Shown here piece by piece: positions 27,001 to 37,834 of a stretch of DNA of 64,000 nt (its first letter is position 1; the number at the start of each line of letters is the position of its first letter). Location: NCBI GenBank assembly GCA_964409875.1, contig CAYPEN010000001.1, positions 356,275 through 420,274 on the forward strand, given 5' to 3'. Made by a program: the position numbers and the translations under genes. Source of the stretch: an uncultured Gammaproteobacteria bacterium (GTDB lineage Bacteria > Patescibacteriota > Microgenomatia > Levybacterales > GWA1-39-11). Below the pieces are notes generated by a model. It worked only from the letters and a program-made list of their open reading frames with translations, was not told the DNA's origin and did no database searches.

Positions 27001-30000
27001 ACATCAACTTCAAATTATGGAGCAACAACTACTGATACCAATACTTTTGGAAGCCTTTCATTCACGGCAGGACCTGCTCCTGTTGATGCAACATTTGCTC
27101 CAACGGGTCTTACTGTTGTTCCCAACTCTTCAACGGTTGATGGAACGTCAGATGTCATCTATGCTCCAAATGCTGATAACGTCTTAAGAATTGATACAAA
27201 GTACGGAGACGAGACGAATGGCATGGCTAAATACTACAATGCCAACTTTATTTCAGAAGACCTTATCGGTGACATCAGGGGCTACTTGCCATTTAATGGC
27301 TCTGGCAGCCTTGCAAATAATACGGCAATCACCGGTTCAACAGTGAAGGGCAATTCTTACATATCAAAGAATGCTAACGGAACCGGTATGGCGTATGGTT
27401 CAGGTGTCAGAGGAACAGGCCTTACCGGCATGACAACAGACGACTACATTTGTACTGGTTCAGGAAGTACTTGTGCAGATGATGCCGACTTTGATACGAC
27501 GACAGGAAGCATGACATTCGGAGCATGGGTAAAGAGGTCTTCAACAGGTTCTCTTCAAACAATTATGGCAAAGATGGGGAACGCCAATGCAGACCGCGCG
27601 TTCAGGCTTTCAATGAGTTCAACAGACTTCCCCACCCTTGAGGTAATGAATGGTACGGGAACCACAAGGACTGCTACCTCAGGTCAGGCAATAACAGACA
27701 CGACTAACTGGCACTATGTTGTCGGAGTATTCGACAACTCCGGCGGAAATCAGTATCTGTACGTTGATGGCGTTCAGGTAGCAACAACTACCAACACAAA
27801 TGACTCTGCCAACTCTGGTGTTGCATTCACCGTTGGTGCAGACCTCTCTGGCGCCTCAAACGCTGCAGCTGACTTCTGGAACGGTTCTATTGATGAACCG
27901 TTCTTCACAAGTGAAGTATTGTCCGCTACCCAAATCCAGCATATGTATGCTGTTGGACTTCAAGCTCTCCAAAACCACACCGCTTCCAGAGTCACAGGAG
28001 TAACAGGAGCTGATACCTATCAGAGGCTTTCGGGTGGTGGTAGTGCGGGTGTGGGTGTTTCAACTGCAACGTCAGTTGCAGTTGATGATAGTAATTCTAA
28101 GGTATTCATAGGTACAAGCGACGGTACAACAAATACCGGCGGCGTGTCGGTTATCTCAAATGCTTCCGATTCTCTGGTTGACCTATACTCTTCGGTCAAT
28201 ACTACGAAAGTTGACGACGGGAATAATACAATTGCAGCAAATGATGTGGTTGCTGTTTCGGTTTCAGGAAGCCCAACCAACGGTCAAGTTTTGGCTATTG
28301 GAGGTACAAATGACACTACCTATAAGGTCTGGGCTGAAACAAAGGATGTAAGCTTCCAGAACTTTATTGCCTCAAACTACAATCCCTTTGGAACAACACT
28401 AGTCCAACAGAACTTGAATGTAAATGGAATACTAAGTCTTAATAATGGAGGCATTGTATCAACGAGCACTAATTTCAATATCGACTTGCCTACCCTTTCC
28501 ACCTTCAGCATTTCAAATAGCTTGGGTACTATTCTTGCCCTGACCGATACGGCAACTACAGACACGCTCAGCCTTGGACTTGCAGGTTCCCGCAATGGCG
28601 CCATCTCATTCCAATCATCCGGCGCAGGAATTTCGGCACCGACAATTGCTGCAGACAGTCTTGGGAATTTGACCGTCCAGACAAATCAGTCGGGCACAAA
28701 TGTGACCGTCGGAAGCGGAAACGGAGCCATCAACATTGTTCCGACAAGCAACAACAACGTATTTGTATCACTTGGCTCCGGAGGCGCAACGGGAGATGTT
28801 CTTTACCAATCAAATGGAACGACATTCTCAACATTTACCGATACTGGGCGCGTCGGGGTAGGTAATTTCACCCCAACCGGATTCAAGTTTGAGGTTCAGG
28901 ATTCGCAGACTGCTTCTGCAGCTGCTCAAATTTACAATACATCAAGCAACACAGATGCTGACGGCCTTGTTGTGAAGCTTGGAAACACCTCGACCACGAC
29001 AGTATCAACGACAAATCATTTCATCAACTTTGAAACATCCGGAATTGGTATTGTCGGTAGCATCCAGGGTAATGGCGGTAAGAACGTCAACTACAAGACC
29101 AATGGTGTAGCTGACTTTTCTGAGTACATGAAGAAAGATCCGAATGAAGCTATACCTTGGGGTTCACTTGTTTGTCTTGGTACGGATGGAAATGTTCATC
29201 CATGCAACAACAACGGTGAGAAAGCTGTTGGAGTCGCTTCGGAATTCCCGACATTTACAGGAGGAGAAGATTTGGGTGACTCATCAATCACCGTTGGACT
29301 TTCAGGAATGGTGAATACCGTTGTTTCTAGCGCAAATGGTGACATCAATCCCGGAGACATGATTGCAGTATCCGCAACAACCGGTGTTGGGGTGAAGGCA
29401 ACCCAAGCTGGAGCAATAATCGGACGTGCTGTCGGTTCGTATTCCAATGCTGATACGAACGCAACAGGTAAGATTCTGGTTTCGGTTAATGTCGGGTACT
29501 ATGATCCGAATAATATTGCCACACACTTGAATTGGAACAATGGTACCCTTACTGCAGAAGGTGACCTGGTGACAACCGGCCAGCTTTCTGCAGGCACTGC
29601 TCTTCTTGGTTCAAGTGGTCAACTGTCGGTTGATGCTAACGGAAACATGTCGACGACCGGTGACATTATCGCCTCAAGTTTTGCTATTACAAACGGCAAG
29701 ATTTACTCCGACAACAATGGGAATCTTGTCAATCAGCTTGCAACAGATCTTAATGGCAACAACAATCCAACTAAGTTTGCCTTCAAGAATGCTGCCGGCA
29801 TGGAAGTTATGGGAATTGACAGTAATGGAAATGCGACCATTTCAGGAACTTTGACGACTAATATCGGTAACTACGATTTGGCAGAGGATTATCCGACCAA
29901 AGACGCAACAATTGAAGCAGGTGACGTTGTTGCGATTGATTCTGACAACGATACGCACATCACGAAGTCCCAGAAGGCATACGATACAGGCGTTATCGGT

Positions 30001-31563
30001 ATCTACTCTGAGAAGCCAGGTTTCAGACTCTCGCAGGTCGGTGGAATCAATGGAGATAAAGCAGTTCCGGTTGCACTTAACGGCCGCGTACCGGTCAAGG
30101 TCAATAATGAAAATGGACCAATTCATAAAGGTGATTACTTGACAACCTCCTCTACTCCGGGTGTTGCGATGAAGGCAACTAAGCCAGGACAGGTCATAGG
30201 TAAAGCATTACAGGACTTTAACGGAGCTAATGGCAAGATTACAGCTTTCGTGAATATCAGCTTTGCAGACCCAGGCAACTTTATTGCCAATCTTACCTCG
30301 GGCGATAAGACACTTTCATCAAGTGTTGTAAGTTCCGATTCAATTAAGCTTCCGCAGAATCTTGTAATTAACGGAAACGTTATCAATGGAAGCCTGTCAG
30401 ATGGTCTTCTTGCCCTCTCAGCAGGAATTAATAATACCCAGAGTGGAATTGACAGAATATCTCTGGCACTAGGCGAGACAAATGCGAAGACAGATGCCAT
30501 TGCCCTTAAGATTGCCTCACTTGAGGAGAAAAATGCATCTAACTCGGCTGCCATCGCAAAGGCCTTAGAGAATGGAGAGGAACTGGACGTCAAAGTCTCC
30601 TCCACCTCATCAGAGCTTGAGAATATTAATGTCAGAATTGAAGCAATACTTTCGCGTCTGAATGCGACAACAGCCTCGAATAGCTCCAATGTAGCGCTAG
30701 CAACCCCATCTGCAACCACAGCAACAGATAGCGCCTCTCCGAGCTATCTTGCAGTAACCGGAGGAAATGTCAGCTCGCCTGATAGCCTTATCAGCCAATC
30801 TGTTCCGACAGTCGATATAGCTACCCGCTCAACAGCTACGCTTCCAGCAGGAGACACCGATTCGCTTACTGTAAGAGACGGTCTCAAGTCTCTTGGCTCA
30901 ACATACCTTGGCAACACTACTGTTACAGGTGCTGTGACCGTTGCCGGACAAGCATACCTGTCCGACACAGACGTTGTAGGCAAGCTCACAGTGAATAACA
31001 CAATTACAATTACTGAAAACGCGGTAAATGTTCTGGGTGAGTCAACATCAAAAGACGAGGTGACCGGTGGCATTTTGTACTTGCAAAACGCTCCGCAAGC
31101 GGTCGGCCTTGATATCTTCTCTGGCAAAGTAACAATTGACAAGAATGGCAACCTCACAACCCAGGGCAGTGTCAATGTAAAAGGTAATCTCAATATTGAA
31201 GGTGCGATAACGGTTACTGCTACTGCGGGTGAGGAAATTAAGGCTCATGATGCGTTATATATCTCTGGCGAAAATACCGTAAAAAGAGCCGATGCAACAA
31301 TTGCCGAGCGTGCAAATGTAGTTGGAATTGCAGCTTCAGACACGAAGAAAGGCGCAATCGTTACTATCATCATAGGTGGGAAAGTAAAAGGATTCAAGAA
31401 CCTGCAGGCAGGAAAGAAGTATTACTTGCAAACAAATGCCGGTATTACCCCTACTCCTCCGCTAGGAAACGCAGTTTCGGTTCCTGTCGGTGTTGCATTC
31501 TCAAAGGATGAACTTCTCATCCAGCTCTCCTCAACGCAAGAGAATACGACCCAATCCAATTAA
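1..31563 (+). CDS. giant repetitive extracellular fibre/adhesin-like protein (>=10,502 aa inside window; 5' end upstream of window)
   Basis: Frame 1 is open from nt 1 (ATDGTITATGDINANSG... continues the repeat seen downstream) to TAA at 31561-31563. Thr/Gly/Asn/Ala-rich. Repeated LFNTNATTLNIGGAATT modules, 16 LC[VI]DGSNxVxKC units, ERVRIDSNGNVGIGTTSPLATLDV tail-fibre-like motif, LamG domain and two IMC-like domains near the C-terminus. Minus-strand ORFs inside it are V/P/A-rich antisense artefacts. Confidence 0.9.
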   Translation, partial: ATDGTITATGDINANSGVLATTQSSASLFNTNATTLTIGGAATTLTLGASTGTATINNTTVVAPNSQFGIGTASPISALYVTRPLTLGSTGKALAIFDQIENQDILTASASGVTKFTVSNTGNVTAAGNLDITGTSQLTGNVTTSGDLAVNGGDITTTNATATLFNTNATNLSIGGAATTVSLGAGTGTTTVNNNLSVSGTTTSTGLITANGGLTVASNQTLTANGSVAIDPNGANDITITTDFSAGSYLTITGLDTQTGNTLCVDGSNNVVKCSAASTTLQSAYNGGNTITTSDNRDIAFTLSDTTTDSNFTVTTADNSTSYSAFTRANGAGTSDPSQLILVDNLDTDRAIAAGIKIQAAAGGITNALDVSDPEIVNALSFGLNDIIGTHVTITGSNGNIATDGTVNATGDITTGGDLAVNGATSADVTTTTTTATVFNTNATTLNIGGAATTLTLGASTGTATIANGTVTFSNATAFDALTALARVDSLQVGGGYGSTGVTVSNTGNIQANGTLTVDGLSTLTGGVTSPGNITTTGTGAITSAGTLTASNGLTLTTGALSLTATSGSLSLSGLGASSLNFGANDVTFTSANFNTTSTGINGTAIGATTPSTGNFTNLTTTSNASFSGNLTLAGAPRSIQTTENNTLTLGGNTTGNINLSPLNGVGIVTVNGNTVVSGSNTLTVGTGLTTLGGALNVAGTSTFTGNISQTGATTFSTGTGNVSLNGNTSVTGSNTFTVGTGLTTLGGNLLAQGTASISGDLTLYSIPTIQSAANQSLTLGGNTTGTINLNDNTNVLGSNTFTVGTGATTLGGTLDVAGVATFTNNISQTGTATFSTGTGNVSLNGNTSVTGTNTFTVGTGLTTLGGNLLAQGTASVSGGLTLYTIPTLQSTANQTLTLGGNTTGDISFKPGNNTSTLYLSSAGKVGIGTSNPLYTLDVINGTANTGTGGYGANPGSFSITGPDLAVGAAGGNMVFTTNSNFAADAGGSIALGGRYISASSNDTIFAKIKGAKENSSSNNRNGYLSFATYNHNADLMIERVRIDSNGNVGIGTTSPLATLDVAGSATISGALTLNSVASIQTTNNQSLTLGGNTTGNIYLNNNTQVLGSNTFTLGASAALIDYGTADFRNSSGLTVGEDLATNTPGQIKFIGAGANNFSTTFVAGTQTQNVTYTLPPDDGNSNYVLVTDGSGGLSWQSSSGIGAGTITAVGNVLSGTAFTGSDSSANKGNQLVFEGSTTVDDANDITLTAVNPVSSVTYTLPDIGTNSDIALLAGTQTFTGAKTFSNGINVSGGNATISGTLTFYGGPQSIQTTNASSLTLGGDTTGDIFLRPRNSTGLVHIVHGNNGNGGLILTDSETDATNKTARIKSTAYNSASSLPVTMMLAANSNTKNQLQIGGGSGSEYATTEILFRTATNLTTTAGTIRLYVGGTDGYVGVGDNNITPVAPLDVLNSGSSGNGEKLALRRSGAGDVGLSFQQNGVSAFGIVNKSGAGNGLAFIDNYWEGDTGVEVARFYASSGVGIGTNGSLPLGTLDVRGIFANSGTQPVASLSGTTTFAGLLVDNAGFGDLLTASTSGATKFVVSNNGSLTAYGSITSGQDKPSGTNNVGGQLKLYSEGDNAYSTVFKTQTQTQNVTYTLPADDGSNNYVLTTDGTGALSWQSASGVGAGTITAVGNVMTGTAFTGNDSSAQKGNNLIFEGSTTTDDANDITLTAVNPAASLTYTLPDLGTNGTFAFLEGSQTFTGAKTFSDLTISDTNVSFSGGNTTLNFGANNATIDASNLLTTGNASISGNLTLAGGARSIQSTAFNTLTLGGSTTGNILLRPQNGTGFVGINVANPQSELDLNGVLSFRDVSGFTSDVGTIQYVTGGVGNGYLRFTGQGTNGTLAEFRDCCNSVFSIGTTGNRSGFGYGLDVGGQLRGDTSIGLYADNTNDTYPSVGFTASGTLAFGAGGASATDTTISRFAKGDLRTTNTILQVQGGNTGGRAALIVDQNGSTTNDLITASSSGATKFEVLNGGGIRIAAGNTIDNLTSGTLSIGTVNASTLNLGTATTGTTNVYGGNINLNGNTNVASGNTFTVVSGQAVITGQNSGGATTLRVNNHTSGGSIAVFQNAAVDVFSILNGGNVAATKELSVLGNVSAGTTTSLTSLYVDGQNSKGRAAFIVNQTASSSNDIFAASSSGTTKFLVANNGDTTISGTTNLNGGATVASGQTLSVLGPVSLDPNGANDITLTTDYTAGSYLNVPGLDTQVGTQLCVDGSNNVVKCAAGSNSLQAAYNGGNTITTSDNRDIAFTLTDTATDSKFTITNQGTANAFVINDTNGATNTLLELQSGGVQKLTIDELGNITTAGDVAVNGGDITTTNATATVFNTNATTLQIGEAATNISIGALTGSTTIHNAVNANGLLTANAGAIVPSGQAFDASGSATFVPNGTNSVTIATDADSFLKLTGLTTPGISGNALCIDASNNVTKCSSSTFTLQGAYNGGNTISTSDNRDIAFTLSNTTTDSNFSVTTATDSTGYSAFTRADGAGTSDPSQLVLIQNLDTNRALPVGLKIAGVSGGNVTTALDLTDSNITTAIALGTNNVNGTNFSITGSSGNITTSGDIAVNGGDLTTSQASATLFDTNATTLNLGGAATTLNLGAATGTATIANNTVSLSNATAFNALSALAKVSSLEVGGAYGSTGVTISSTGDIQANGTLTIDGTSTLTGNVTATGDIAVNGGDITSTSGTATLYNSGVSTVNIGSAATTVTLGAATGTTTVNNNLGVTGTLTSTGLAQFNGNALVPNDRSFDASGAATFAPNATNDVTFNTDSDSTIVLNGLQTATGTTLCVDGSNNIVKCSAASITLQSAYNGGNTITTSAGRDIALTLTDANFSATASAGSNGFSQFALANGSNANPANQIVLVENLDTNEGVTTGIKVQASAGGITNGIDLSDPELVNALALGANDVVATNFSITGSNGNIATNGTITATGDINVNSGTLATNQTTANLFNATATTLNIGGVATTLNLGASTGTATINNTTVNLANATTFTANSAAASFDSLTVGGGYGSTGVTVSNTGNIQANGTLTVDGISTLTGNVTTSGTINANGGTIATNQTTANLFTANATTLNIGSAATTVSLGAGSGTTTVNNALTSTGLITANGGLTVSSSQTLTANGPVSIDPNSSNDIAITTDFSAGSYINITGLDTQNGTALCIDGSNNVVKCANAAATLQSAYNNGNTILTSDSKDIAFTLSDTTTDSNFMVMTATGSTGYSAFTRADGAGTADPAQLVLIQNLDTNRAQPIGLKIAGVSGGNITTALDLSDSNITTAIALGTNNISATHFTLTGSNGNIATDGTITATGDITSTGNLAANGGTLSTTNSSANVFNANATTLNIGGAATTVSLGAGSGTTTVNNSLTVSGSAFDALSALARVDSLQVGGGYGSTGVTVSNAGTIQANGNLTIDGTSTLTGNVTATGDIALNGGDLTTTSGTATLFNANATTLNIGGAATTVSIGAGTGTTTVNNNLTVAGNGVYAGTSTFNGDVTISSDRYFNASGSAIFSPAGTESVTVNTDADSFLTLNGLTTPGVAGTTLCIDGSNNVTKCAASTFSLQGAYNGGNTINTSDNRDIAFTLSNTTTDSNFTVTTADGSTGYSVFTRANGSGTSDPAQLVLVDNLDTDRPVAAGIKVQAAAGGITNGIDLSDAEIVNALSLGANDITSTHFTLTGSNGNIATDGTITASGDINANSGTLATNQTTGNLFNATATTLNIGGAATTVSLGAGSGTTTVNNSLTVSGSAFDALSALARVDSLQVGGGYGSTGVTVSNTGNIQANGTLTIDGVSTLTGNITTSGTINANGGTIASTQSSFDLFTSTVTTLNAGTAATTLNLGATTGTATINNATVTLSNATAFNALTALAKVDSLQVGGGYGSTGLTISNAGNIQANGTLTVDGTSTLTGDVTAAGDVAVNGGDITTTAASATLFNTNATTLAIGGAATGLTLGASTGTTTVNNNLVVAKTSTFNGDVTISDSRYLNASGSAIFSPSGTNSVTVNTDADSFLKVTGLTTASGTELCIDGSNNVVKCSGVSVSLQGAYNGGNTIVTSDNRDIAFTLSDTTTDSNFTVTTAAGGSGYSYFALADGTNATPPSQLLLVENLDTNEALPVGIKIQSAAGGITTAIDLSDPEIVTALSLGANDVAATNFSVTGSNGNITTAGDIAVNGADITTSSTGTATVFNTNATTLNIGGAATTYTLGATNATGNIRGTTINFPNATTLSAAGAALTIDSVSVGGGYGSTGTTLSNTGDIQANGNLTIDGTSTLTGNVTTSGDIAVNGGDVTTTAASATLFNTNATTLNIGGAATTLSLGAGTGTTTVNNNLSVSGTTTSTGLVTANGGLTVSSGQTLTASGPVSIDPNGANDITVTTDFAAGSYLIVSGLDTQAGTNVCIDGSNHIVKCANAAVSLQSAYEGGNTIVTSDNRDISFTLSNTTTDSNFTVTTAADSTSYSTFTRANGGSGTNPSQLVLIQNLDSGNALPIGLKIAGVSGGNVTTALDLSDANITTAIALGANSISGTHFTLTGSNGNIATDGTITATGNINANSGTLATSQTTGNLFNTTATTLNIGGAATTYTLGATTATGNIRGTTINFPNATTISAGSAALTIDSLSVGGGYGSTGVSIGNTGNIQANGALTIDGTSTLTGNVTAGGDLAVNGATSADITTTTTTATLFNTNATTLNIGGAATTLSLGAGTGTTTVNNDLAVTGTTTATGLATFNGGATVATGQTFTANGASTFSPDSTNSVTVNTDADSFLKLTGLTTPGTAGSVLCVDASNNVTKCSANTITLQSAYNGGNTINTSNNRDIAFTLTNTATDSNFAVTTATDSTGYSAFTRADGAGISDPAQLVLIKNNDVDRALPVGLKIAGVSGGAVTTAIDLSDANITTALSLGAADVTATNYSITGATGNITTSGDIAVNGGDITTTQASATLFNTNATTLNVGGAATTLNLGAATGTATIANGTVTFSNATAFNALTALAKVDSLQVGGGYGSTGVTIGNTGNIQANGTLTVDGTSTLTGNVTASGDLAVNGATSADITTTTATATLFNTNATTLNIGGAATTLTLGAGGGTTTLTNNLAVTLNDNSVDALDIQEGTNNYINVNTTDGSENISFGNTTTNPTYSFLGTGATTFSGNINANSGTIATNQTTGNVFNTNATTLNIGGAATSYTLGATNATGNVRGTTINFPNATALNASSALATLDSVSVGGGYGSTGTTLSNTGNIQANGTLTVDGISTLTGDVTTSGDVAVNGGDLTTTAATATLFNTNATTLNIGGAATALTLGATTGTTSIRNNLIVSGTSTFNGDVTVSNARSFDASGSATFTPSGTNGVTINTDADSYLTLTGLSSSTGTPICLDGSNHVIACANATLSLQNAYNGGNTIDTSDSRDIAFNLSDTTTDSNFAVTTTTGSTGYSAFTRADGAGTADPAQLVLIQNLDTNRAQPIGLKVAGVSGGNITTGIDLTDSNLTTALALGANNVSATNFSIAGSTGNITTSGDVAVNGGDLTTTNATATLFNANATNLSIGSAATTYTVGSNTATGNIHGTTVNFNNATALNAASALATLDSVSVGGGYGSTGVSISNAGNIQANGDLTIDGASTLTGNSSVGGTFDVTGATTLHSTLAVTSTGTFGGDINANSGTIATNQTTGNIFTTNATTLNIGSAATTVSLGAGSGTTTVNNALTATGLITGNAGVTVPSGQTLSASGQSTFAPNSTNDITFTTDADSTIHITGLSDTTGTPLCLNGTNDVITCSGNSITLQNAYNGGNTIDTSDNRDIAFNLSNTTTDSNFAVTTTTGSTGYSAFTRADGAGTADPAQLVLIKNLDTNRAQPIGLKVAGVSGGNITTGIDLTDSNLTTALALGANNVSATNFSLTGSTGDITTAGDIAVNGGDVTTTSSTGNLFNANATTVNIAGAGTGVTIGANNSGTTTIRNAAVTFSNASTFDALSATAGFDTVNVGGGYGSTGTTLSNTGNIQANGNLTIDGTSLLTGAVTASNGITVSGTTTADIISSKTTANLFNTTATTLNVGGAATTLALGASTGTATINNLTLSLPNATTINATAATANIDTLNVGAGYGSTGVTVSNAGNIQANGDLTIDGLTTLTGNLTETGDIALNGGDLTSSASTFNIVNAGVTTLNIGGAATTVTLGAGTGTTTLNNNLTANLVDNNTDALDIQEASNNYININTTNGSENISFGNTTTNPTYSFLGTGASTFSGNINANSGTIATNQTTGNLFNTTATTLNLGGAATTLTIGATTGTASVRNANVTLPNALVGIGTNSPASALFVTRPANLAFTGKAVAIFDQNENQDIITASASGTTRFTVARTGDVATSGDVNVNGGDIITSTTGTATVFNTNATTLNIGGAATAISIGNGSGSTTVNNALTAAGTISANGGLNVATNQTLQALGQSTFTPSGTNGVTITTDSDSFLTLDGLQSSSGTALCVDGSNHVITCAAASQSLQAAYNNGNTINTSNNRDIAFTLSDTATDSNFTVTTAAGSTSTSKFVLADGSNATPPSQLILIDNADSNQALTSGLKVTASGGAGGGVTTALDVSDSSIVTAIDLGANDIAGTNFSVDGSTGDTTIAGTINANGGTIATTNTSASVFNATATTLNVGGAATSLTLGATTGTASIRNATLSLPNATTVNATGATANFSQVTTGGGYASTGTSITNTGDISAKGNLTIDGTSQLTGALTASAGITVSGASSADLISSKTTANLFNTTATTLNIGGAATTISLGAAGGTTTVNGGLTVASGKTLLAQGQSTFTPSGTNGVTINTDSDSFLTITGLSSVTGSAVCVDGSNHVGTCNAASQSLQAAYNNGNTILTSDNRDIAFTLSDTTTDSKFTVTTATGATGGSEFTRADGAGTADPSQLVLIKNLDTNRALPVGLKIAGVTGGNVTTAIDLSDTNITTALSLGVGDVTATHYTITGSNGNISTDGTLTVKGGTIGTNQASFDLLNATATTINFGGAASTLNIGATGGTATIANDTLSLPNATGINAGSAVLTIDSASIGGGYGSTGIALSNTGDVSANGNLTIDGTSQLTGAVTASAGITVSGASSADLISSKTTANLFNTTATTLNIGGAATTLSLGAAAGTTTVNGNLTVGANKTLTSTGAVSFTPSGTNGVTITTDTDSFLTVPGLTTTVGVQPAVCIDGSNHIVKCDATANNSLQTAYNNGNTIFTSNNRDIAFTLSDTATDSNFTVTTAAGSTSTSKFVLADGSNPTPAAQLVLIDNADANQPATAGLKVTSTGGGGVTTALDVSDASIVTGLALGGSAITGTNFNVASTGDITTAANIAVNGGSITTSGATGSVFDTNATTVTVGSAATSYTLGATTATGNLRGTTINFPNATTISAGSAALNVLSTAIGGGYGSTGLSITNAGDLSTNGNVTVDGTSQLTGAVTASAGITVSGASSADLISSKTTANLFNTTATTLNIGGAATTLSLGAAAGTTTVNGNLTVASSKTLSALGPVSLDPNAANDVTITTDYTAGSYLVIPGLDTQAGSILCVDGSNNVVKCAASSQSLQTTYNAGNTINTSDARDIAFTLSDTTTDSKFTVTTADGSTGYSLFERANGTGVADPSQLILVNNADTNRPVPTGIKVTSSGGGGVTTALDVSDSGITTGLALGATAITGTNFSVTSGGSITAAGDAAINNGNITTTSTGTAAVFNTNATTLNMGGDATAYTLGATTATGNLRGTTINFPNATTISAGSADLNILSTSIGGGYGSTGVTITNAGDISTDGNVVIGGTTTSTGLVTASTGLKVNGASQADITTDKTTATVFNSTATTLKLGEAATTVSIGAGGGTTTVNGALTVASGKTFTANGAVSLAPSGSNGVTINTPNGSSSYLSLLGLTGGAGTSLCIDGSNHVVTCSAGSSAATLQSAYNTGNTINTSDNKDIAFSLSDTSTDSKFTVTTATNSTGGTEFLRADGAGTNDPSQLVLIKNQDTNRALPIGLKVAGVSGGNVTTALDVSDANVVTGLALGASAITGTNFGVATNGDITTGGDIAVNGGDITTSNTTATVFNTNATSVNAFGDATTLILGANNSGTATIRNSTVTLSNATAFNATSATGAFSVLTTGGGYASAGTTIGATGNIQTKGALTIDSTSTLTGLVTASSGIKINGTTSADITTDKTTANIFDSTATTINLGGGATTALNIANGTTNYSAINIGNGNITSGTNTIAIGNGASGTGVEAITIGSTNSSSSLALNAGTGNISLSSAGTLSFTGSGASSTTTFNVPSSLASAFDIKQAGNDYLNISTNGTPSLTFGNGTTNPTYSFAGTGNVTITGDLIVNGGDVSATSGTSVNLFNTAQTTSLNVGGSADVALGGSSKTVTVGGNLTVNGATTSLASTAINLTGNGVTLDQSGTGTLSINTTTNRAITLGSGTLTLNGNTINLAGSAPAIAATTTNAALALDSNGSGALNLQGTNSTGNVNIAGGSGSTGCTITNSTGALVCAGSITSNASTGTVQQGFFTKDYNTKVISNTAGDDYFALATSGGANSLLSLSSSALTTSGVAAFNNAVTISGTAASSTYYGQKLAVTNNQATNADTVYGQYITFTDAGSLANTITGLYVDASTANTADTTYAAVFRNTSGAAGVVGIGTSAPTADLDISSAQTTGNVLKITDNSITSGNFITVSNKNANSVTPSILTLNDRDLTVGGHTDFKAPAGNGTISDVFVYDTTKDSDGGNWTDSDAARSSSWYNETLDHAASTCVEGTDDRCGQRAFPRKAIIVATNSGSNGANVSIYDAKDNSLWMQFQKSGSTDGMIGTATSNTISSVYALNGKLYVGNNGASAGGLYVIDFTRDTAYKYKATGNYNGSLPISSRNSANTWLAYTTTGNSLIPSATINHVRAAYIHGKDYFAVATAGGTRGAVGLFNYTTQTLIANFGANTNSTHVALTPNGTLYYTITSGSNNAIKAKYNAISASGNTQLASVVYGTTSTSNYGATTTDTNTFGSLSFTAGPAPVDATFAPTGLTVVPNSSTVDGTSDVIYAPNADNVLRIDTKYGDETNGMAKYYNANFISEDLIGDIRGYLPFNGSGSLANNTAITGSTVKGNSYISKNANGTGMAYGSGVRGTGLTGMTTDDYICTGSGSTCADDADFDTTTGSMTFGAWVKRSSTGSLQTIMAKMGNANADRAFRLSMSSTDFPTLEVMNGTGTTRTATSGQAITDTTNWHYVVGVFDNSGGNQYLYVDGVQVATTTNTNDSANSGVAFTVGADLSGASNAAADFWNGSIDEPFFTSEVLSATQIQHMYAVGLQALQNHTASRVTGVTGADTYQRLSGGGSAGVGVSTATSVAVDDSNSKVFIGTSDGTTNTGGVSVISNASDSLVDLYSSVNTTKVDDGNNTIAANDVVAVSVSGSPTNGQVLAIGGTNDTTYKVWAETKDVSFQNFIASNYNPFGTTLVQQNLNVNGILSLNNGGIVSTSTNFNIDLPTLSTFSISNSLGTILALTDTATTDTLSLGLAGSRNGAISFQSSGAGISAPTIAADSLGNLTVQTNQSGTNVTVGSGNGAINIVPTSNNNVFVSLGSGGATGDVLYQSNGTTFSTFTDTGRVGVGNFTPTGFKFEVQDSQTASAAAQIYNTSSNTDADGLVVKLGNTSTTTVSTTNHFINFETSGIGIVGSIQGNGGKNVNYKTNGVADFSEYMKKDPNEAIPWGSLVCLGTDGNVHPCNNNGEKAVGVASEFPTFTGGEDLGDSSITVGLSGMVNTVVSSANGDINPGDMIAVSATTGVGVKATQAGAIIGRAVGSYSNADTNATGKILVSVNVGYYDPNNIATHLNWNNGTLTAEGDLVTTGQLSAGTALLGSSGQLSVDANGNMSTTGDIIASSFAITNGKIYSDNNGNLVNQLATDLNGNNNPTKFAFKNAAGMEVMGIDSNGNATISGTLTTNIGNYDLAEDYPTKDATIEAGDVVAIDSDNDTHITKSQKAYDTGVIGIYSEKPGFRLSQVGGINGDKAVPVALNGRVPVKVNNENGPIHKGDYLTTSSTPGVAMKATKPGQVIGKALQDFNGANGKITAFVNISFADPGNFIANLTSGDKTLSSSVVSSDSIKLPQNLVINGNVINGSLSDGLLALSAGINNTQSGIDRISLALGETNAKTDAIALKIASLEEKNASNSAAIAKALENGEELDVKVSSTSSELENINVRIEAILSRLNATTASNSSNVALATPSATTATDSASPSYLAVTGGNVSSPDSLISQSVPTVDIATRSTATLPAGDTDSLTVRDGLKSLGSTYLGNTTVTGAVTVAGQAYLSDTDVVGKLTVNNTITITENAVNVLGESTSKDEVTGGILYLQNAPQAVGLDIFSGKVTIDKNGNLTTQGSVNVKGNLNIEGAITVTATAGEEIKAHDALYISGENTVKRADATIAERANVVGIAASDTKKGAIVTIIIGGKVKGFKNLQAGKKYYLQTNAGITPTPPLGNAVSVPVGVAFSKDELLIQLSSTQENTTQSN
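3520..5190. repeat. ~1.4-kb segmental duplication within the giant gene (YTLP.DDG.SNYVL.TDG.G.LSWQS...TYTLPD module present twice)
   Basis: Protein segments encoded at ~3520-3800 and ~4910-5190 are near-identical (QNVTYTLP.DDG.SNYVL.TDG.GALSWQS.SG.GAGTITAVGNV.TGTAFTG.DSSA.KGN.L.FEGSTT.DDANDITLTAVNP). Confidence 0.7.
6650..24100. repeat. in-frame tandem array of ~16 long repeat units (357-700 aa) inside the giant gene, each carrying a Cys-x10-Cys loop
   Basis: Cys codons of the LC.DGSN.V.KC motif at 6766, 7384, 8494, 9595, 10741, 12178, 13294, 14437, 16192, 17355, 19471, 20542, 21613, 22684 and 23755, plus a more divergent copy at 790. The last four spacings are exactly 1071 nt. 21244-21460 and 22324-22540 are near-identical over >200 nt. 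Confidence 0.85.
27440..27960 (+). other. LamG / concanavalin A-like lectin domain (Laminin_G_3-like) embedded in the giant protein
   Basis: Segment FGAWVKRSSTGSLQTIMAKMGNANADRAFRLSM...NWHYVVGVFDNSGGNQYLYVDGVQVATTT...FTVGADLSGAS...FWNGSIDEPFFTSEVLSATQIQHMY matches the LamG pattern (aWvk...W.hv...ylYvdG...F.G.iDE..f). Confidence 0.65.
29111..30285 (+). other. two tandem phage tail-fibre/spike-type intramolecular-chaperone (Peptidase_G2-like IMC) domains in the giant protein
   Basis: Copy 1 (29111-29508): ADFSEYMKKDPNEAIPWGSLVCLGTDGNVHPC...GKILVSVNVGYYDP. Copy 2 (29865-30285): DLAEDYPTKDATIEAGDVVAIDSDNDTHITKS...GKITAFVNISFADP. Both resemble the ADYAEYFEW...GDYILGVVS signature of phi29 gp12-type and Bacillus-prophage tail-fibre IMC domains, as recalled from memory. 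Confidence 0.55.
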
Positions 31564-32851: not shown

Positions 32852-35332
32852 CTATTGTATCGTTGTTCCACCTTTTATTGTCGTTCCTCCTCTAATGTTG
32901 ACATCAAGAGGAATGGTTGTTACTTGCGGATAATTCCGATATGCAGCAAGGTCTGAACTATCAGAATTAGTGATTTTGATGCAATAGGTTACTGAAGTTG
33001 AATCATCGGAATTATCAATAAGAGAAAAATCAAAAAGTCCTGCTCGGTTATTGGCAATAGCATTCTGGTCATTTGAGATGTTGTCGTAAGCAAGTACACC
33101 AATATTGGTATCCTCAAAGTAGTTCTCAAGAACGGTAGTGTATGTCGGAGTATCTGCAGGGTCATTTGCCGTAGAGGATATTACATCACCCGATGCAGGA
33201 GTCGCATTAGGATTGAACGATATTGGAGTACCGCCGGAAGGGTCAAGTACCTGAGCATATGTCCCATCTGCGCAATTTCCGCTTGTTGGAAGCGCAGCAT
33301 ATTGAAGAATAAAATCTCCAGCATCCACTCCAAGACTTCCCGTAGCACTATCAACATCAAGAAGCATACGAAGACGGAACGGGTAATTCGGCTGAGCCAG
33401 TGTTATGGGAGAATTTACGGCTGTGGTGCCGCCAAAGATGGTAGTTGGGTTGGCGGCATCAGTATTTTCAAAAAAACGGTAACTGCCCTGTGAAATAGTA
33501 ATTTGGGCATTATAAGCAGCAACGGCTGAGGAACAAGTACCTCCGGCGCCAGACCAAGTGACAATATCACGTTGAGACGTTGGAGGATTATTAACGGCCT
33601 CTCCCCAACCGCTTGTGTAGCTTGCTGCCCCTCCGGAATAGCCATCAGATCCACCATTTATATCCGTATCCGTAAAACCCGTTGATGAAGCACCGGTAAT
33701 TGCATTATGAGAACTGACGGTAAGACTACCATTCGTTGATGCAGCTGCGCTTACTAAAAGTTCATCAGGATTTGTGGGTGTAAGTGTGTTGGAGGTTTCA
33801 GTATGTGCCCCAGTATTACAAGTAGTATTTCTATGAACTGATGATACTTTGTCAAAAAAGCCGCTTGATGAATTCCCTGAGAATTCAAGCAATTGTGCCG
33901 CTATCTCTCCACTATTTGTAGTTGTTGTGCACGCTTGGGACGATATAGGTGCAGCAGGAGCAGTTCTATCAAAAAGATATATATTCGGACTGTTAGCAAT
34001 TCTGAAACGGCGGGTCCAGCTGCCGGGAGTGGAGAACGTATTGCTTGTATCCCTTGAACAGATGAGTACAAGAAGATGGCCGGATGTGGTGGGCGTGCTA
34101 AGCGTTGCTGTTACAGATGTACCTGATGCAGCAGTGTTATGGGCTTCCTGAACAAGAGAGAAAATTGAGTCGGAGGCAATTTGCCACTCCTGCCCCTCAG
34201 AGAATTGCCCAACTTTGAAAGGCCCGACCAGATAAAATTCCGGTGAAATATAGGGGAATTTTATGGTGTAGGAAAGCACGTGAGTTTCGCCCTTTTTCCA
34301 ATCAACTTGCCACTCTAGAGTCTTAATCTTGTTGTAATCGGCTATATCTCCGTGCTCCGAAATATCAAATATTTGAAAATTTGATGGAACGGTGTCATAG
34401 ACTGTTCCCGCAAAATCCCTATTCGCAGTTACTTTGATTTTCACCGGATAGTTGAAGCGTGGATAGATACGCATCGGATATTGAACCCTTTCTATAGTAT
34501 ATGGGGCAAAATCTCTGACCGTAAAAAATGAATCCATTTCATTGCTTCCTAAATAATTTTGCGCTTTTATATGCATCGTGTAACGACCGGTTTCCAAAGC
34601 CTTCGTTTGGGCAGTAAAGTCCGGGATATTGGTAAATGAGCGGTCTGCACACGTCTTACTTCCTGATATTGTGCCATTATCAGTCGAGAATTCTTCGGTT
34701 TTGCCGGTAGGGCTTGTTATGGTGAGCCAGAGTTTTGCCGTACCGAAAACAATTTTTCCCTCTTTTGCAATGCATTTCGTGATACCAAAATCATCGAGAA
34801 CCGCCATGCCGATATTTACCTCATCTCCCTTCATGTAAAACCCCTTATTGGTGTTGATAGCCAAAACTCCCCAGGTAAAATCCTGCGTTACTGTAATGTC
34901 TTCACCTGTATATGTTTTTACTTTTACGTCTAACATGTAAAGACCGGGCTTGAACCTGTTTTCTGTCTTTGGGGTAACGATAAGCTGCTTGTCGCGGTCG
35001 TTAAATTGGGTGTCTACTTTGAGTGAGATATCTCCTTTAGCGTTAGTAACACTTCCTTTGACCATTTTTTCGCGTTCTGCTGCATGCGCAGTCCACATGT
35101 TTTTAAATTTTTCTTCTGTCAATTTGAAAGCAAACTGCGGCAATGTATTTGCCTGGACAGCAATAGGTTTGTCATTTTGGTTTTGTCCTACAACAAAAAG
35201 CTGCCGCTGTTGTTGAATAGGAGACGGAGTGACTGATTCAGGTGCTTTTAAATAGACAATTACGAAAAAAACAAGAAGTCCAAGTGGTAAAAGTAACGAA
35301 GCAAACAATAGAAAAAGCCTTTTTAGGTTCAT
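32852..35332 (-). CDS. hypothetical secreted/membrane-anchored protein (826 aa), paralog 1
   Basis: Complete ORF with an N-terminal hydrophobic anchor (LFLLFASLLLPLGLLVFFVIVYL). Shares about 40-50% identity and the same domain order with the 35372-37834 product. C-terminus YRNYPQVTTIPLDVNIRGGTTIKGGTTIQ. Confidence 0.8.
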   Translation of the reverse strand: MNLKRLFLLFASLLLPLGLLVFFVIVYLKAPESVTPSPIQQQRQLFVVGQNQNDKPIAVQANTLPQFAFKLTEEKFKNMWTAHAAEREKMVKGSVTNAKGDISLKVDTQFNDRDKQLIVTPKTENRFKPGLYMLDVKVKTYTGEDITVTQDFTWGVLAINTNKGFYMKGDEVNIGMAVLDDFGITKCIAKEGKIVFGTAKLWLTITSPTGKTEEFSTDNGTISGSKTCADRSFTNIPDFTAQTKALETGRYTMHIKAQNYLGSNEMDSFFTVRDFAPYTIERVQYPMRIYPRFNYPVKIKVTANRDFAGTVYDTVPSNFQIFDISEHGDIADYNKIKTLEWQVDWKKGETHVLSYTIKFPYISPEFYLVGPFKVGQFSEGQEWQIASDSIFSLVQEAHNTAASGTSVTATLSTPTTSGHLLVLICSRDTSNTFSTPGSWTRRFRIANSPNIYLFDRTAPAAPISSQACTTTTNSGEIAAQLLEFSGNSSSGFFDKVSSVHRNTTCNTGAHTETSNTLTPTNPDELLVSAAASTNGSLTVSSHNAITGASSTGFTDTDINGGSDGYSGGAASYTSGWGEAVNNPPTSQRDIVTWSGAGGTCSSAVAAYNAQITISQGSYRFFENTDAANPTTIFGGTTAVNSPITLAQPNYPFRLRMLLDVDSATGSLGVDAGDFILQYAALPTSGNCADGTYAQVLDPSGGTPISFNPNATPASGDVISSTANDPADTPTYTTVLENYFEDTNIGVLAYDNISNDQNAIANNRAGLFDFSLIDNSDDSTSVTYCIKITNSDSSDLAAYRNYPQVTTIPLDVNIRGGTTIKGGTTIQ

Positions 35333-35371: not shown

Positions 35372-37834
35372 TTACTGAATCGTTGTTCCTCCGGTAATTG
35401 TTGTTCCTCCTTTGATATTTACATCCAACGGAATGGTCGTTACTTTCGGATAATTTCTATATGCATCTAGTAGTGACTGGTCTCCATTTGCTACAACCAG
35501 GCAATACGTAGTTGAAACAGAATCGTCGGTGTTATCAATAAGAGAAAAATCAAAAAGTCCGGCCTGGTTATTGCCCATCGTCAAGTTGTGGTTTGTAATA
35601 TCCTCGCTTCCGTCAGAAAGCCACGTCTCCGCATAATCTTCAAGTCTTGTTGTGTAGCCGGTATCGGTAGGATCGTTTGCAGTCGCTCCAATAATAGCAT
35701 TATTCCCACCGGAATTTGGATTGGGGTTGTATGCAATCGGGGTTCCATCAGCTTGGGTTCCAACAGGGTTATAGGTTCCGTCCGCACAGTCCCCGGAAGA
35801 TGGAAGTGGTGCATACATCAATATCCAGTCACCGCTATCTACATCCACTATTGTGCCTGAGGGACTGTCAACATCAAGCAGTATCCTGAGCCTGAAAGCA
35901 TACCCGGGTTGGCTAAGAGTAATTGGACTATTTTCTGTTGCGGTTCCTCCAAAAACGGTAATGGGGTCTACCGCATCGGTGTTTTCGAAAAACTGATAGC
36001 TCCCTTGTGAGACCGTGACCGTTGGGTTGAAAGAAACAATGATATTTGCACACGTTCCGCCCGACGCGTTGTAGGTTGCGGTATCATGGGTTGATACTGG
36101 TGGATTATTAACCTGTTCTGACCATGAACTGTCAAAAGTTCCTGTTGAGCCGTTAAAGCTGGCTGCGGTATCAGCGTAATCACTCAGATGGCTTCCGACA
36201 CTCGTTGTACCTGTTGCCGCAAAGGCCGCAACAACCAGTTCGTCAGGATTAGCTGGTGTTATATTGGATGTTGCACTCTGATGGGCGCCAGTACTGCAAG
36301 AAAAAGCATTTCGTCTGGCACGCCTATCTCTCACGCTACTGGTCGAGTTGCCTGAAAACTCGAGTATTTGAATTCCCAATGTGCCTGAGCTTCCCGAGCA
36401 GGTGACCGTAGCTGACATTCCTGTCGGAACCACACGGTAAAACATATAGGCTCTCGGGTTGCTCGTTGAGTTATTGTATGCGAGGGTAAATCCTGACGGG
36501 GTGTTAAATGTTGCACTGTTGGTTCTATAACACATAACAAGAACAAGATTTCTTTGTGTAGGAGCTGAAGGCAGCGTTGCACTTACAGAAGTACCGCTTC
36601 CATTATTGTGGGTTTCCTGGACAAGCTGAAATATGGAGTCAGATGCAATTTTCCACTCTCTTTTTTCTGTGAATGTACCAATTGTAAAAGGTCCAACTAG
36701 ATAAAATTCGGGAGCGACTTGGGGAAAATGTATAGTGTATGAGAAGTGATAAGTCTTACCCTTTTTAAGCGTTGTTTCCCACCCGACTGCTTGATAATCA
36801 GTTGTGTTTTCTGTCACGCCACCGTTTGAAATGTGAGTAATTTTGAAATTTTTAGGTACAATATCATGAATATAGCCTGAAAAGTCCTCATTTGATTTAA
36901 TAGTAACAGTAACCGGGTAATCTACTTTTGGATAAATTCTTGTAGGAAATTTTGTCCGCTCTATCTCAAATTTTGGTTCATTTTGTTCTACAACAAATGA
37001 TGTTTGTATGCTTCTCTTGCCCAGATAATGTTCTGCGTCCATTTGAATTTGGTATGTTCCGACCTCATTTGCAGTAATTCTACTCAAAAAATCAGCTTTA
37101 TTAGTAACACTTCTGTCTTTACAGTCTCCGCTTCCCCATATAGACCCATCCTCAGTAGACAGTTTTGTAACTTTACCTGTAGGACTTGTTATTGTCAGCC
37201 ACACTTTGGCGGTATTTAATTGAATGTCACCTGTTGCAATGCATTTTGTCCTTCCATAATCGCCCAAAACAGCCATGCCAATATTTACATCCTCGCCTAC
37301 TCTATATAGTGCCTTATTAGTATTTATTGCCAAAACACCCCATGTGAAGTCTTGCGTTATCTCTTCAGCTACCCCTGTTGCAGTTTTTACTTTAACACTC
37401 AATGTATAGAGCCCTGGTTTAACCTTGTTATCGTATTCGGGAGCTACGAGTACCTCTTTTTTTGTGTCTGAAAAACTTATATTTACATCAAGTTCTGAGT
37501 TCCCGGTCGCATGAGCAAAGCTGGCCTCTACAAGTTTTGTTCGCTCTATACCACTCGCCCGCCAAACATTATCGAATTTATTGTTTGACAGAGATACAGC
37601 AAACTTCGGAAGAGTTGATGCTCTTACTGTGATGGGAGTTTCTGAAGTTCTTTTAGATATTGGGATTACTCGTTCTCTTAGAGGTTTCAGAGAAGCATAA
37701 TTATGGGTATTCTTTGTTGTTTTAGACGGTTTACTTTTGGACTGAGAAAGTACAATCAATATTGAAAAGCAGAGAGCTAAAACTAGGAAAGAAATTACAA
37801 AACTTCGGAGCATCTCTCTAAAAGTATAGCACAA
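35372..37834 (-). CDS. hypothetical secreted/membrane-anchored protein (820 aa), paralog 2
   Basis: Complete ORF with an N-terminal anchor (FVISFLVLALCFSILIVL). Shares the LVL..C.R..TP.G.T and LEFSGNS...C.TGAH...NPDEL motifs with paralog 1. C-terminus YRNYPKVTTIPLDVNIKGGTTITGGTTIQ. Confidence 0.8.
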   Translation of the reverse strand: MCYTFREMLRSFVISFLVLALCFSILIVLSQSKSKPSKTTKNTHNYASLKPLRERVIPISKRTSETPITVRASTLPKFAVSLSNNKFDNVWRASGIERTKLVEASFAHATGNSELDVNISFSDTKKEVLVAPEYDNKVKPGLYTLSVKVKTATGVAEEITQDFTWGVLAINTNKALYRVGEDVNIGMAVLGDYGRTKCIATGDIQLNTAKVWLTITSPTGKVTKLSTEDGSIWGSGDCKDRSVTNKADFLSRITANEVGTYQIQMDAEHYLGKRSIQTSFVVEQNEPKFEIERTKFPTRIYPKVDYPVTVTIKSNEDFSGYIHDIVPKNFKITHISNGGVTENTTDYQAVGWETTLKKGKTYHFSYTIHFPQVAPEFYLVGPFTIGTFTEKREWKIASDSIFQLVQETHNNGSGTSVSATLPSAPTQRNLVLVMCYRTNSATFNTPSGFTLAYNNSTSNPRAYMFYRVVPTGMSATVTCSGSSGTLGIQILEFSGNSTSSVRDRRARRNAFSCSTGAHQSATSNITPANPDELVVAAFAATGTTSVGSHLSDYADTAASFNGSTGTFDSSWSEQVNNPPVSTHDTATYNASGGTCANIIVSFNPTVTVSQGSYQFFENTDAVDPITVFGGTATENSPITLSQPGYAFRLRILLDVDSPSGTIVDVDSGDWILMYAPLPSSGDCADGTYNPVGTQADGTPIAYNPNPNSGGNNAIIGATANDPTDTGYTTRLEDYAETWLSDGSEDITNHNLTMGNNQAGLFDFSLIDNTDDSVSTTYCLVVANGDQSLLDAYRNYPKVTTIPLDVNIKGGTTITGGTTIQ

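Follow-up and report, generated by a model that had tools for sequence, protein, structure and literature searches.

Two compact phi29 gp12-type domains near the C-terminus of a giant CPR protein: a putative self-excising double cassette

The C-terminal domain of gp12, the spike protein of phage phi29, is said to have been assigned a chaperone role by Xiang and co-workers in 2009, and Asp692 and Glu695 are reportedly given, by the same authors and under MEROPS family G2, as its catalytic residues. A comparable domain pair is the subject of this work: a 64,000-nucleotide stretch of patescibacterial DNA (the whole of it referred to below as the window) encodes the C-terminal part of a giant cellular protein, in which we find two related copies of a gp12-like domain. 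In gp12, this intramolecular chaperone (IMC) cleaves itself off after trimerisation and is then released in an ATP-dependent step (PMC13397572); it is absent from the virion (PMC9863714), and its fold is classified in ECOD as head decoration (PMC13397572). In the Peptidase_S74 chaperones, likewise, a trimerising C-terminal chaperone excises itself once the trimer has folded (PMC4690869; PMC8326128). The K1F/T5 type of chaperone is structurally different from that of phi29, however, and displays a coiled-coil core with long tentacles (PMC4690869).

The host of the domains studied here is a member of the Patescibacteria, or candidate phyla radiation (CPR). These are ultra-small bacteria, the few cultivated members of which grow attached to host cells. 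The giant protein of the window ends in a conserved cassette of about 820 aa, which consists of two G2-like domains, a spacer of about 120 aa, a helix of about 95 residues, a beta-rich stalk and a terminal phage-cement-like domain. The reading that we favour, with moderate confidence, is that both G2-like copies are paralogous, compact chaperone and autoproteolytic domains of the phi29 gp12 type (Peptidase_G2, head-decoration fold), and that this double-G2 cassette would bring the chains of a trimer into register and then excise itself.

Two gp12-like domains in a giant protein

The giant open reading frame (ORF) is open at the left edge of the window, which carries the final 10,520 residues, the start lying outside. 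Its features are listed in Table 1. The two G2-like copies sit in the final 8% of the protein, followed by 684 residues after copy 1 and 429 after copy 2. Each comprises about 135 aa, and the two are 35% identical to each other over 142 aa (BLASTP, E 3e-19). A hidden Markov model (HMM) built on 105 family domains recovers two copies and no others, both in the 10,520 residues and in all six frames of the window (aa 9696-9838 and 9950-10092), and the pattern D[LIVFYM][AS]E occurs just twice in the same 10,520 residues, both times at the start of a copy. Mutual homology, HMM matches and pattern count together therefore argue that the duplication is real and not due to chance. An earlier note on this DNA, made from the letters alone, had described two consecutive IMC copies. 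The duplication stands, but the copies are not consecutive: a spacer of about 112-120 aa intervenes (aa 9839-9949 if counted from the HMM matches, aa 9837-9958 if counted from the domain limits); a Pfam scan of this spacer gave no match. The copies were correctly said to start with ADFSEYMK and DLAEDYP, which are located from aa 9704 (nt 29110) and from aa 9959 (nt 29875), respectively; the start coordinate 29111 was one base off codon phase.

Table 1. Features of the giant gene and of its C-terminal cassette, in window coordinates
Feature	Residues	Position (nt)	Strand	Remarks
Giant ORF	at least 10,520 aa	1..31563	+	frame 1, first stop 31561-31563
Laminin_G_3 (concanavalin-like lectin) domain	aa ~9156-9313	27466..27939	+	Pfam PF13385, E 6.2e-21, 75.6 bits
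Predicted cleavage site 1	Ala9704 / Asp9705	29110..29115	+	motif D-F-S-E (Asp9705, Glu9708); aligns on gp12 Ser691/Asp692...Glu695
G2-like IMC domain, copy 1	aa 9705-9836	29113..29508	+	family HMM E 7.5e-34
Spacer	aa 9837-9958	29509..29874	+	beta-rich, fibre-like; conserved in orthologues; ends with conserved pre-cleavage strand NPTKFAFKNAAGMEVMGIDSNGNATISGTLTTNIGNY
Predicted cleavage site 2	Tyr9958 / Asp9959	29872..29877	+	motif D-L-A-E (Asp9959, Glu9962); conserved motif
G2-like IMC domain, copy 2	aa 9959-10091	29875..30273	+	family HMM E 2.7e-63; better conserved copy
Long predicted alpha-helix	aa 10132-10227 (~95 residues)	30394..30681	+	AlphaFold2 secondary structure, tail residues 53-148
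Beta-rich stalk segment	aa ~10290-10400	30868..31200	+	orthologue alignment; short strands in low-confidence AlphaFold2 model
Terminal Phage_cement_2-like domain	aa ~10402-10501	31204..31503	+	Pfam PF09956, 24.0 bits, E 5.3e-5

Among PDB sequences, the relation to gp12 became apparent only with a family profile; a phmmer search of the two-copy region against PDB sequences returned noise only. Profile A1, built on 43 family domains and searched against all PDB sequences, places the gp12 entries 6QZ9, 3GQH and 3SUC at ranks 1-3 (E 3.1e-4, 6e-4 and 5.4e-3, respectively). The AlphaFold2 (AF2) model of copy 2, with a pLDDT (predicted local distance difference test) of 93, shows the all-beta, head-decoration-like fold of gp12 domain D4; by structure as by profile, the proteolytic domain of gp12 is matched best, ahead of any cement protein. 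Both gp12 and the window copies carry a D-x-A/S-E motif at the first residues of the domain, which in gp12 is the cut site, and in both, beta-structured fibre precedes the domain and the pre-cleavage strands are similar.

The earlier note had named K1F endosialidase next to phi29 gp12 as a model. The comparison with gp12 holds; K1F belongs to another family (S74), and we regard as refuted, with a negligible residual probability, the idea that the window copies are chaperones of the K1F-endosialidase or T5 pb1 type (Peptidase_S74, Ser-Lys dyad). The two types share a general analogy, both being C-terminal self-cleaving chaperones of trimeric fibres. Against this, Peptidase_S74 gives no match to the window copies even at E up to 10, the model is all-beta where the T5/K1F type has a coiled-coil core with long tentacles (PMC4690869), and there is no conserved Ser at the junction.

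The Asp-Glu motif and predicted self-excision

At its cut site gp12 reads GGNTWS/DFAEYFES, and the window copies read NGVA/DFSEYMK and IGNY/DLAEDYP. D9705/E9708 and D9959/E9962 are aligned on the gp12 DFAE motif (D692/E695), and PDB entry 3GQH, the crystallised C-terminal fragment of gp12, begins at the Asp of this motif. The Asp and the Glu form nearly invariant columns of the family (D9 and E12), each being present in 103 of 105 family domains. The residue preceding the Asp varies among these 105 domains (Ala in 54, Tyr in 16, Phe in 9, Ser in 4); in the window protein, copy 1 has Ala and copy 2 has Tyr at this place. From the Ser/Asp/Glu triad considered in the earlier note, Asp and Glu thus remain, in both copies, and Ser drops out. 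At copy 2, the sequence Y-D-L/I-A-E-D-Y/F is kept in 13/13 other aligned sequences (11 genome loci as well as proteins P0004 and P0005), and the Asp-Glu pair of this copy in all aligned sequences; at copy 1, the pair is kept in 10 of 11 orthologues. The exception is locus L010, where copy 1 (locus frame-1 aa ~3087-3206) reads AFTGSHY instead of D-x-A-E-x-Y and copy 2 is intact.

Locus L010 also bears on a rival explanation, in which only copy 2 cleaves itself, copy 1 and the spacer stay as the distal tip, and the cut at Tyr9958/Asp9959 removes only helix, stalk and cement-like tail. Conservation is indeed far higher in copy 2 and in the strand before its cleavage site (E ~1e-60, compared with ~1e-35 for copy 1), with an essentially invariant YDLAEDY, and L010 has lost the Asp and Glu of copy 1 with copy 2 intact. 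We nevertheless consider this explanation improbable, as the window protein and 10 of 11 orthologues keep the copy 1 pair, which is likewise retained in the first copy of almost all of the 150 double-copy representatives described below, and copy 1 is the one which scores on Pfam Peptidase_G2.

The main rival holds that both domains are non-cleaving, trimeric, cement-like clamps which are retained in the mature fibre, with D-x-A-E playing a structural or binding role. Several observations fit such clamps: copy 2 scores higher on capsid-protein Pfam families than on Peptidase_G2, the terminal cement-like domain of the same cassette does without the motif, the G2-like domains are internal rather than terminal, and extracellular ATP would be absent, precluding a release of the gp12 kind. 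The closest structural and profile match is the proteolytic domain and not a cement protein, however, and the near-invariant Asp and Glu stand at the exact scissile position of gp12. Retention of two acidic residues across about 32,000 clusters would moreover be unexpected for a purely structural N-terminal strand. On balance, clamps of this kind appear unlikely to us, if worth taking seriously.

Returning to self-excision by both copies, we hypothesize the following course of events. The protein would be exported and held by its N-terminus, which lies outside the window. Three chains would come into register at the cell-distal C-terminal end via the cement-like domain, the coiled coil and the two G2 domains, and the long beta-structured fibre would fold next, from the C-terminus towards the N-terminus, seeded by the cassette. 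Each G2 domain, once trimeric, would then hydrolyse the bond before its own Asp (D9705/E9708 and D9959/E9962). The cassette would be released as two pieces (aa 9705-9958 and aa 9959-10520), presumably without ATP, and the mature fibre, presumably located at the cell surface, would be left with an end about 390 aa beyond the Laminin_G_3 domain. In a more far-reaching version, which we rate as doubtful, the cassette would be a two-step, ATP-independent maturation device specific to extracellular giant CPR fibres: an outer cut would shed the trimeric helix/cement cap, and an inner cut would excise a trimeric plug of about 255 aa, unmasking the adhesive, Laminin_G_3-bearing tip only when extracellular folding of the fibre (>10,000 aa) is complete. 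Under this version, the trimeric pieces might also be functional in themselves once shed.

Several points weigh against cleavage by the two copies, and part of them concerns the relation to gp12 itself. Scanned alone with Pfam Peptidase_G2 (PF11962, gathering threshold 25 bits), copy 1 scores 23.7 bits (E 3.6e-5, profile positions 46-97 around the cleavage site) and copy 2 gives no match, so that neither copy reaches the gathering score. The sequence match to gp12 is mainly confined to the first ~60 residues of the domain, the ~50-residue insertion of gp12 is missing from the compact family, and G94, D95 and K108 (A1 numbering), which are invariant in this family, are not conserved in gp12 by visual comparison. 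The fold is also common to capsid cement proteins, which are non-proteolytic. Whereas gp12 carries one copy as its last domain, the window protein has two, each with further protein after it, which is atypical of a shed chaperone. Release of the gp12 type would require ATP, which an extracellular fibre would lack. Loss of the Asp and Glu in L010 suggests that cleavage of copy 1 is not indispensable. As the N-terminus of the window protein is missing, export or anchoring can be deduced from its relatives only; cleavage as such is something we infer, for the window protein as for every member of the compact family.

The low Pfam scores are explained by the missing insertion together with the restriction of the similarity to about the first 60 residues, for which reasons Pfam misses the compact form. 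Nor does the 1,020-aa C-terminal stretch, when scanned as a whole, give a match to Peptidase_G2 or Peptidase_S74 in Pfam, PHROGs or NCBIfam. Three homologues from a search of 5.8 billion proteins (P0022, P0040 and P0089) exceed the Pfam Peptidase_G2 cut-off on the same segment, with 26.9-35.9 bits. A search with Peptidase_G2 profiles, as put forward in the earlier note, leaves both window copies below the Pfam threshold; the family profile gives the relation to gp12 statistical support. All in all, we regard the observation made in that note as partly confirmed and its interpretation as partly supported.

Architecture, recurrence and genomic setting of the cassette

The long helix downstream of copy 2 (30394-30681) agrees with the predicted coiled coil which the earlier note had placed at 30400-30700. 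Its AF2 block has a pLDDT of about 56-76, in a monomer model of the 441-aa tail with a pLDDT of 51, and a crude heptad scan is compatible with this helix; it is probably a trimeric coiled coil. A Ser/Thr/Ala-rich linker connects it to the beta-rich stretch. The further C-terminal domain of about 120 aa, also anticipated in the note, corresponds to a Phage_cement_2 match, which lies exactly at the gathering threshold of PF09956 (24 bits), making it a borderline member; the match recurs in 10/10 orthologues tested (best E 2.4e-7). The terminal domain shows weak similarity to the G2-like profile (hhalign, probability 59%, E 9e-5, 40 columns) and is devoid of the D-x-x-E motif. It probably adopts the same head-decoration fold, as the third such domain of the cassette. 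No hydrophobic anchor was found at the C-terminus of the giant protein. Orthologous cassettes finish in one of two end domains, either the Phage_cement_2-like one or a domain of the type '...SASAG...NGDYSPA.RYWI...FNWWIVN' (compared in loci L006, L011 and L012 and in proteins P0006-P0009); the end of P0006 gives a weak match to K1-lyase_C.

The same arrangement recurs widely. At 10/17 related genome loci, copy 1 is followed by a spacer of about 100-300 aa (longest in L010, L011 and L012), copy 2 and a tail of 330-470 aa, and in all ten of them the cassette terminates an ORF which is still open after 10 kb of upstream flank. The nearest related locus, at 89% identity, belongs to a metagenome-assembled genome (MAG) of Candidatus Levyibacteriota; further related loci were found in MAGs of Daviesbacteria, Saccharimonadales and unclassified Patescibacteria. 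A single-domain profile, searched against 1.84 billion cluster representatives, retrieves 31,929 proteins at E<=1e-3. The best 150 of these 31,929 all have two or three copies on re-scan (up to four stretches by the count of the search itself), the list being ranked by summed score, which favours multi-copy proteins among the best 150. Within these 150, D-x-A-E is retained in nearly all copies, the spacer has a median of 129 aa (10th-90th percentile 93-178), the tail a median of 247 aa, and the proteins range from 485 to 6,814 aa. The tandem arrangement, which had been thought unusual, is thus widespread and stereotyped, both at ten CPR loci and throughout the best 150 of the 31,929 clusters. 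A full-text search of open-access PMC and bioRxiv yielded no description of tandem G2 domains or of a double cassette in giant CPR proteins.

Many members of the compact family terminate in the G2-like domain, and the named members of the list above belong to Candidatus Uhrbacteria. A hydrophobic segment within the first 400 aa is present in 80 of 125 full-length representatives, which fits export or N-terminal anchoring of the family. Several large members (loci L015 and L017, protein P0126) start, as judged by eye, with a MerR/excisionase-type helix-turn-helix-like segment, followed by a transmembrane segment near residue 180-220 and by fibre thereafter; oddly, what seems to be an extracellular giant would thus bear a DNA-binding head in the cytoplasm. 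In two other homologues (P0015 and P0019), the G2-like domain is preceded, at a distance of about 60 residues, by a Hint / Intein_splicing C-terminal segment, which could be an additional type of autoprocessing module within this fibre family. The NCBI name of P0015, 'replicative DNA helicase', is probably a mis-annotation which stems from the intein-like piece.

The composition of the giant protein is dominated by T, G, A, N and S, and charged residues are scarce. Its aa 1-9500 (nt 1-28500) yield zero domains in a Pfam scan and contain about 20 Cx9C cysteine pairs (for example aa 2256/2266, 2832/2842 ... 7919/7929) at a spacing of ~357-380 aa. These pairs mark repeat modules of ~360 aa with a probable disulfide hairpin; the modules are deduced from the Cx9C spacing, and a BLAST of the giant protein against itself gave the identity match only. 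The first hairpin of G2-like copy 1 holds a Cx9C pair of the same kind (C9725/C9735). The Laminin_G_3 domain lies about 390 aa upstream of predicted cleavage site 1 and is a candidate for the distal binding domain on the mature fibre. Its match (E 6e-21 in a piece of 1,100 aa) is lost inside a chunk of 4,700 aa, presumably because of the bias and whole-sequence corrections of HMMER in a low-complexity giant. Giant proteins should for this reason be scanned for domains in tiles.

Downstream of the giant gene are encoded the alpha and beta subunits of PheRS, ThrRS, IF3, L35/L20, a Wzy-type ligase, a GH18 enzyme and penicillin-binding proteins. This housekeeping neighbourhood indicates a bacterial chromosome and not a phage, and it bears out the description of the protein as a cellular giant in the earlier note. 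A prophage or phage tail-fibre gene, or an assembly chimera, would go with the phage-type domains and with the G+C content of the giant gene (0.46-0.50 over 1-31563, compared with 0.39-0.43 elsewhere in the window, 32000-64000). Such an origin is very improbable in our view: no phage genes lie nearby, the flank is housekeeping, and numerous CPR MAGs, independent of one another, contain orthologues of the giant ORF that carry the cassette, some of them on contigs of 1.3-1.6 Mb. The shift in G+C content is probably due to the Thr/Gly/Ala-rich codon content rather than to foreign origin. Just downstream of the giant gene lie two adjoining minus-strand ORFs of 826 aa and 820 aa (32852-35332 and 35372-37834), neither of which gives a Pfam match at E<=1e-5. 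Three short ORFs (29196-29447, 29606-29854 and 29842-30126; one on the plus strand, the others on the minus strand) were taken as shadows of the giant gene, because they lie wholly inside its 31.5-kb reading frame.

Implications and comparison with known systems

The cassette offers a testable assembly route for giant CPR fibres, in which C-terminal trimer registration in the style of phages would be followed by self-excision at two bonds. It also points to a gap in annotation which concerns about 32,000 clusters (at 50% identity): the window copies and most of the relatives listed stay below the Pfam Peptidase_G2 threshold, and most relatives are therefore left without a Pfam domain or an informative name. 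With a profile newly built from the compact form, these relatives would be annotated and their likely processing sites marked.

The same compact version of the domain is found in fibre proteins of jumbo phages (Pseudomonas phage PA5oct gp359, Agrobacterium phage Atu_ph07), where it is about 41% identical to copy 2 and begins at the Asp of DLAE. Unlike the window protein, the jumbo-phage protein of 478 aa carries a single copy at its very end and no double cassette. The gene of PA5oct gp359, a 'virion structural protein' (locus L020, 1966-3402), adjoins tail-fibre genes. Its motif reads Y-A-D-L-A-E-R-Y, and Pfam gives no Peptidase_G2; the annotation gap therefore extends to phage fibre proteins.

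Cement proteins (Phage_cement_2, XM1_gp53_minor_capsid; those of HFTV1, Sf11, Pam3 and BB1, and the base of phi29 gp8.5) are free-standing, capsid-binding and not known to be proteolytic, and the G2-like window copies are closer to gp12 than to them. The Peptidase_S74 chaperones (K1F endosialidase, T5 pb1, GA-1 gp12 and the eukaryotic MYRF) are unrelated to the G2-like copies in fold and in catalytic residues (Ser-Lys). As for phi29 gp12, the domain measures 163 aa, compared with ~135 aa in the compact form, and it belongs to an 854-aa phage spike, whereas the window protein is a cellular giant of more than 10,000 aa, for which an ATP-dependent release as in gp12 is unlikely. The authors of the gp12 structure are said to have already raised a gp12-like maturation for bacterial adhesins, and our proposal is therefore an extension of known biology and not a new principle. 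The principle is known from phages; the variant described here sets a compact G2-type domain, which stays below the Pfam threshold, into a stereotyped double cassette of giant CPR proteins.

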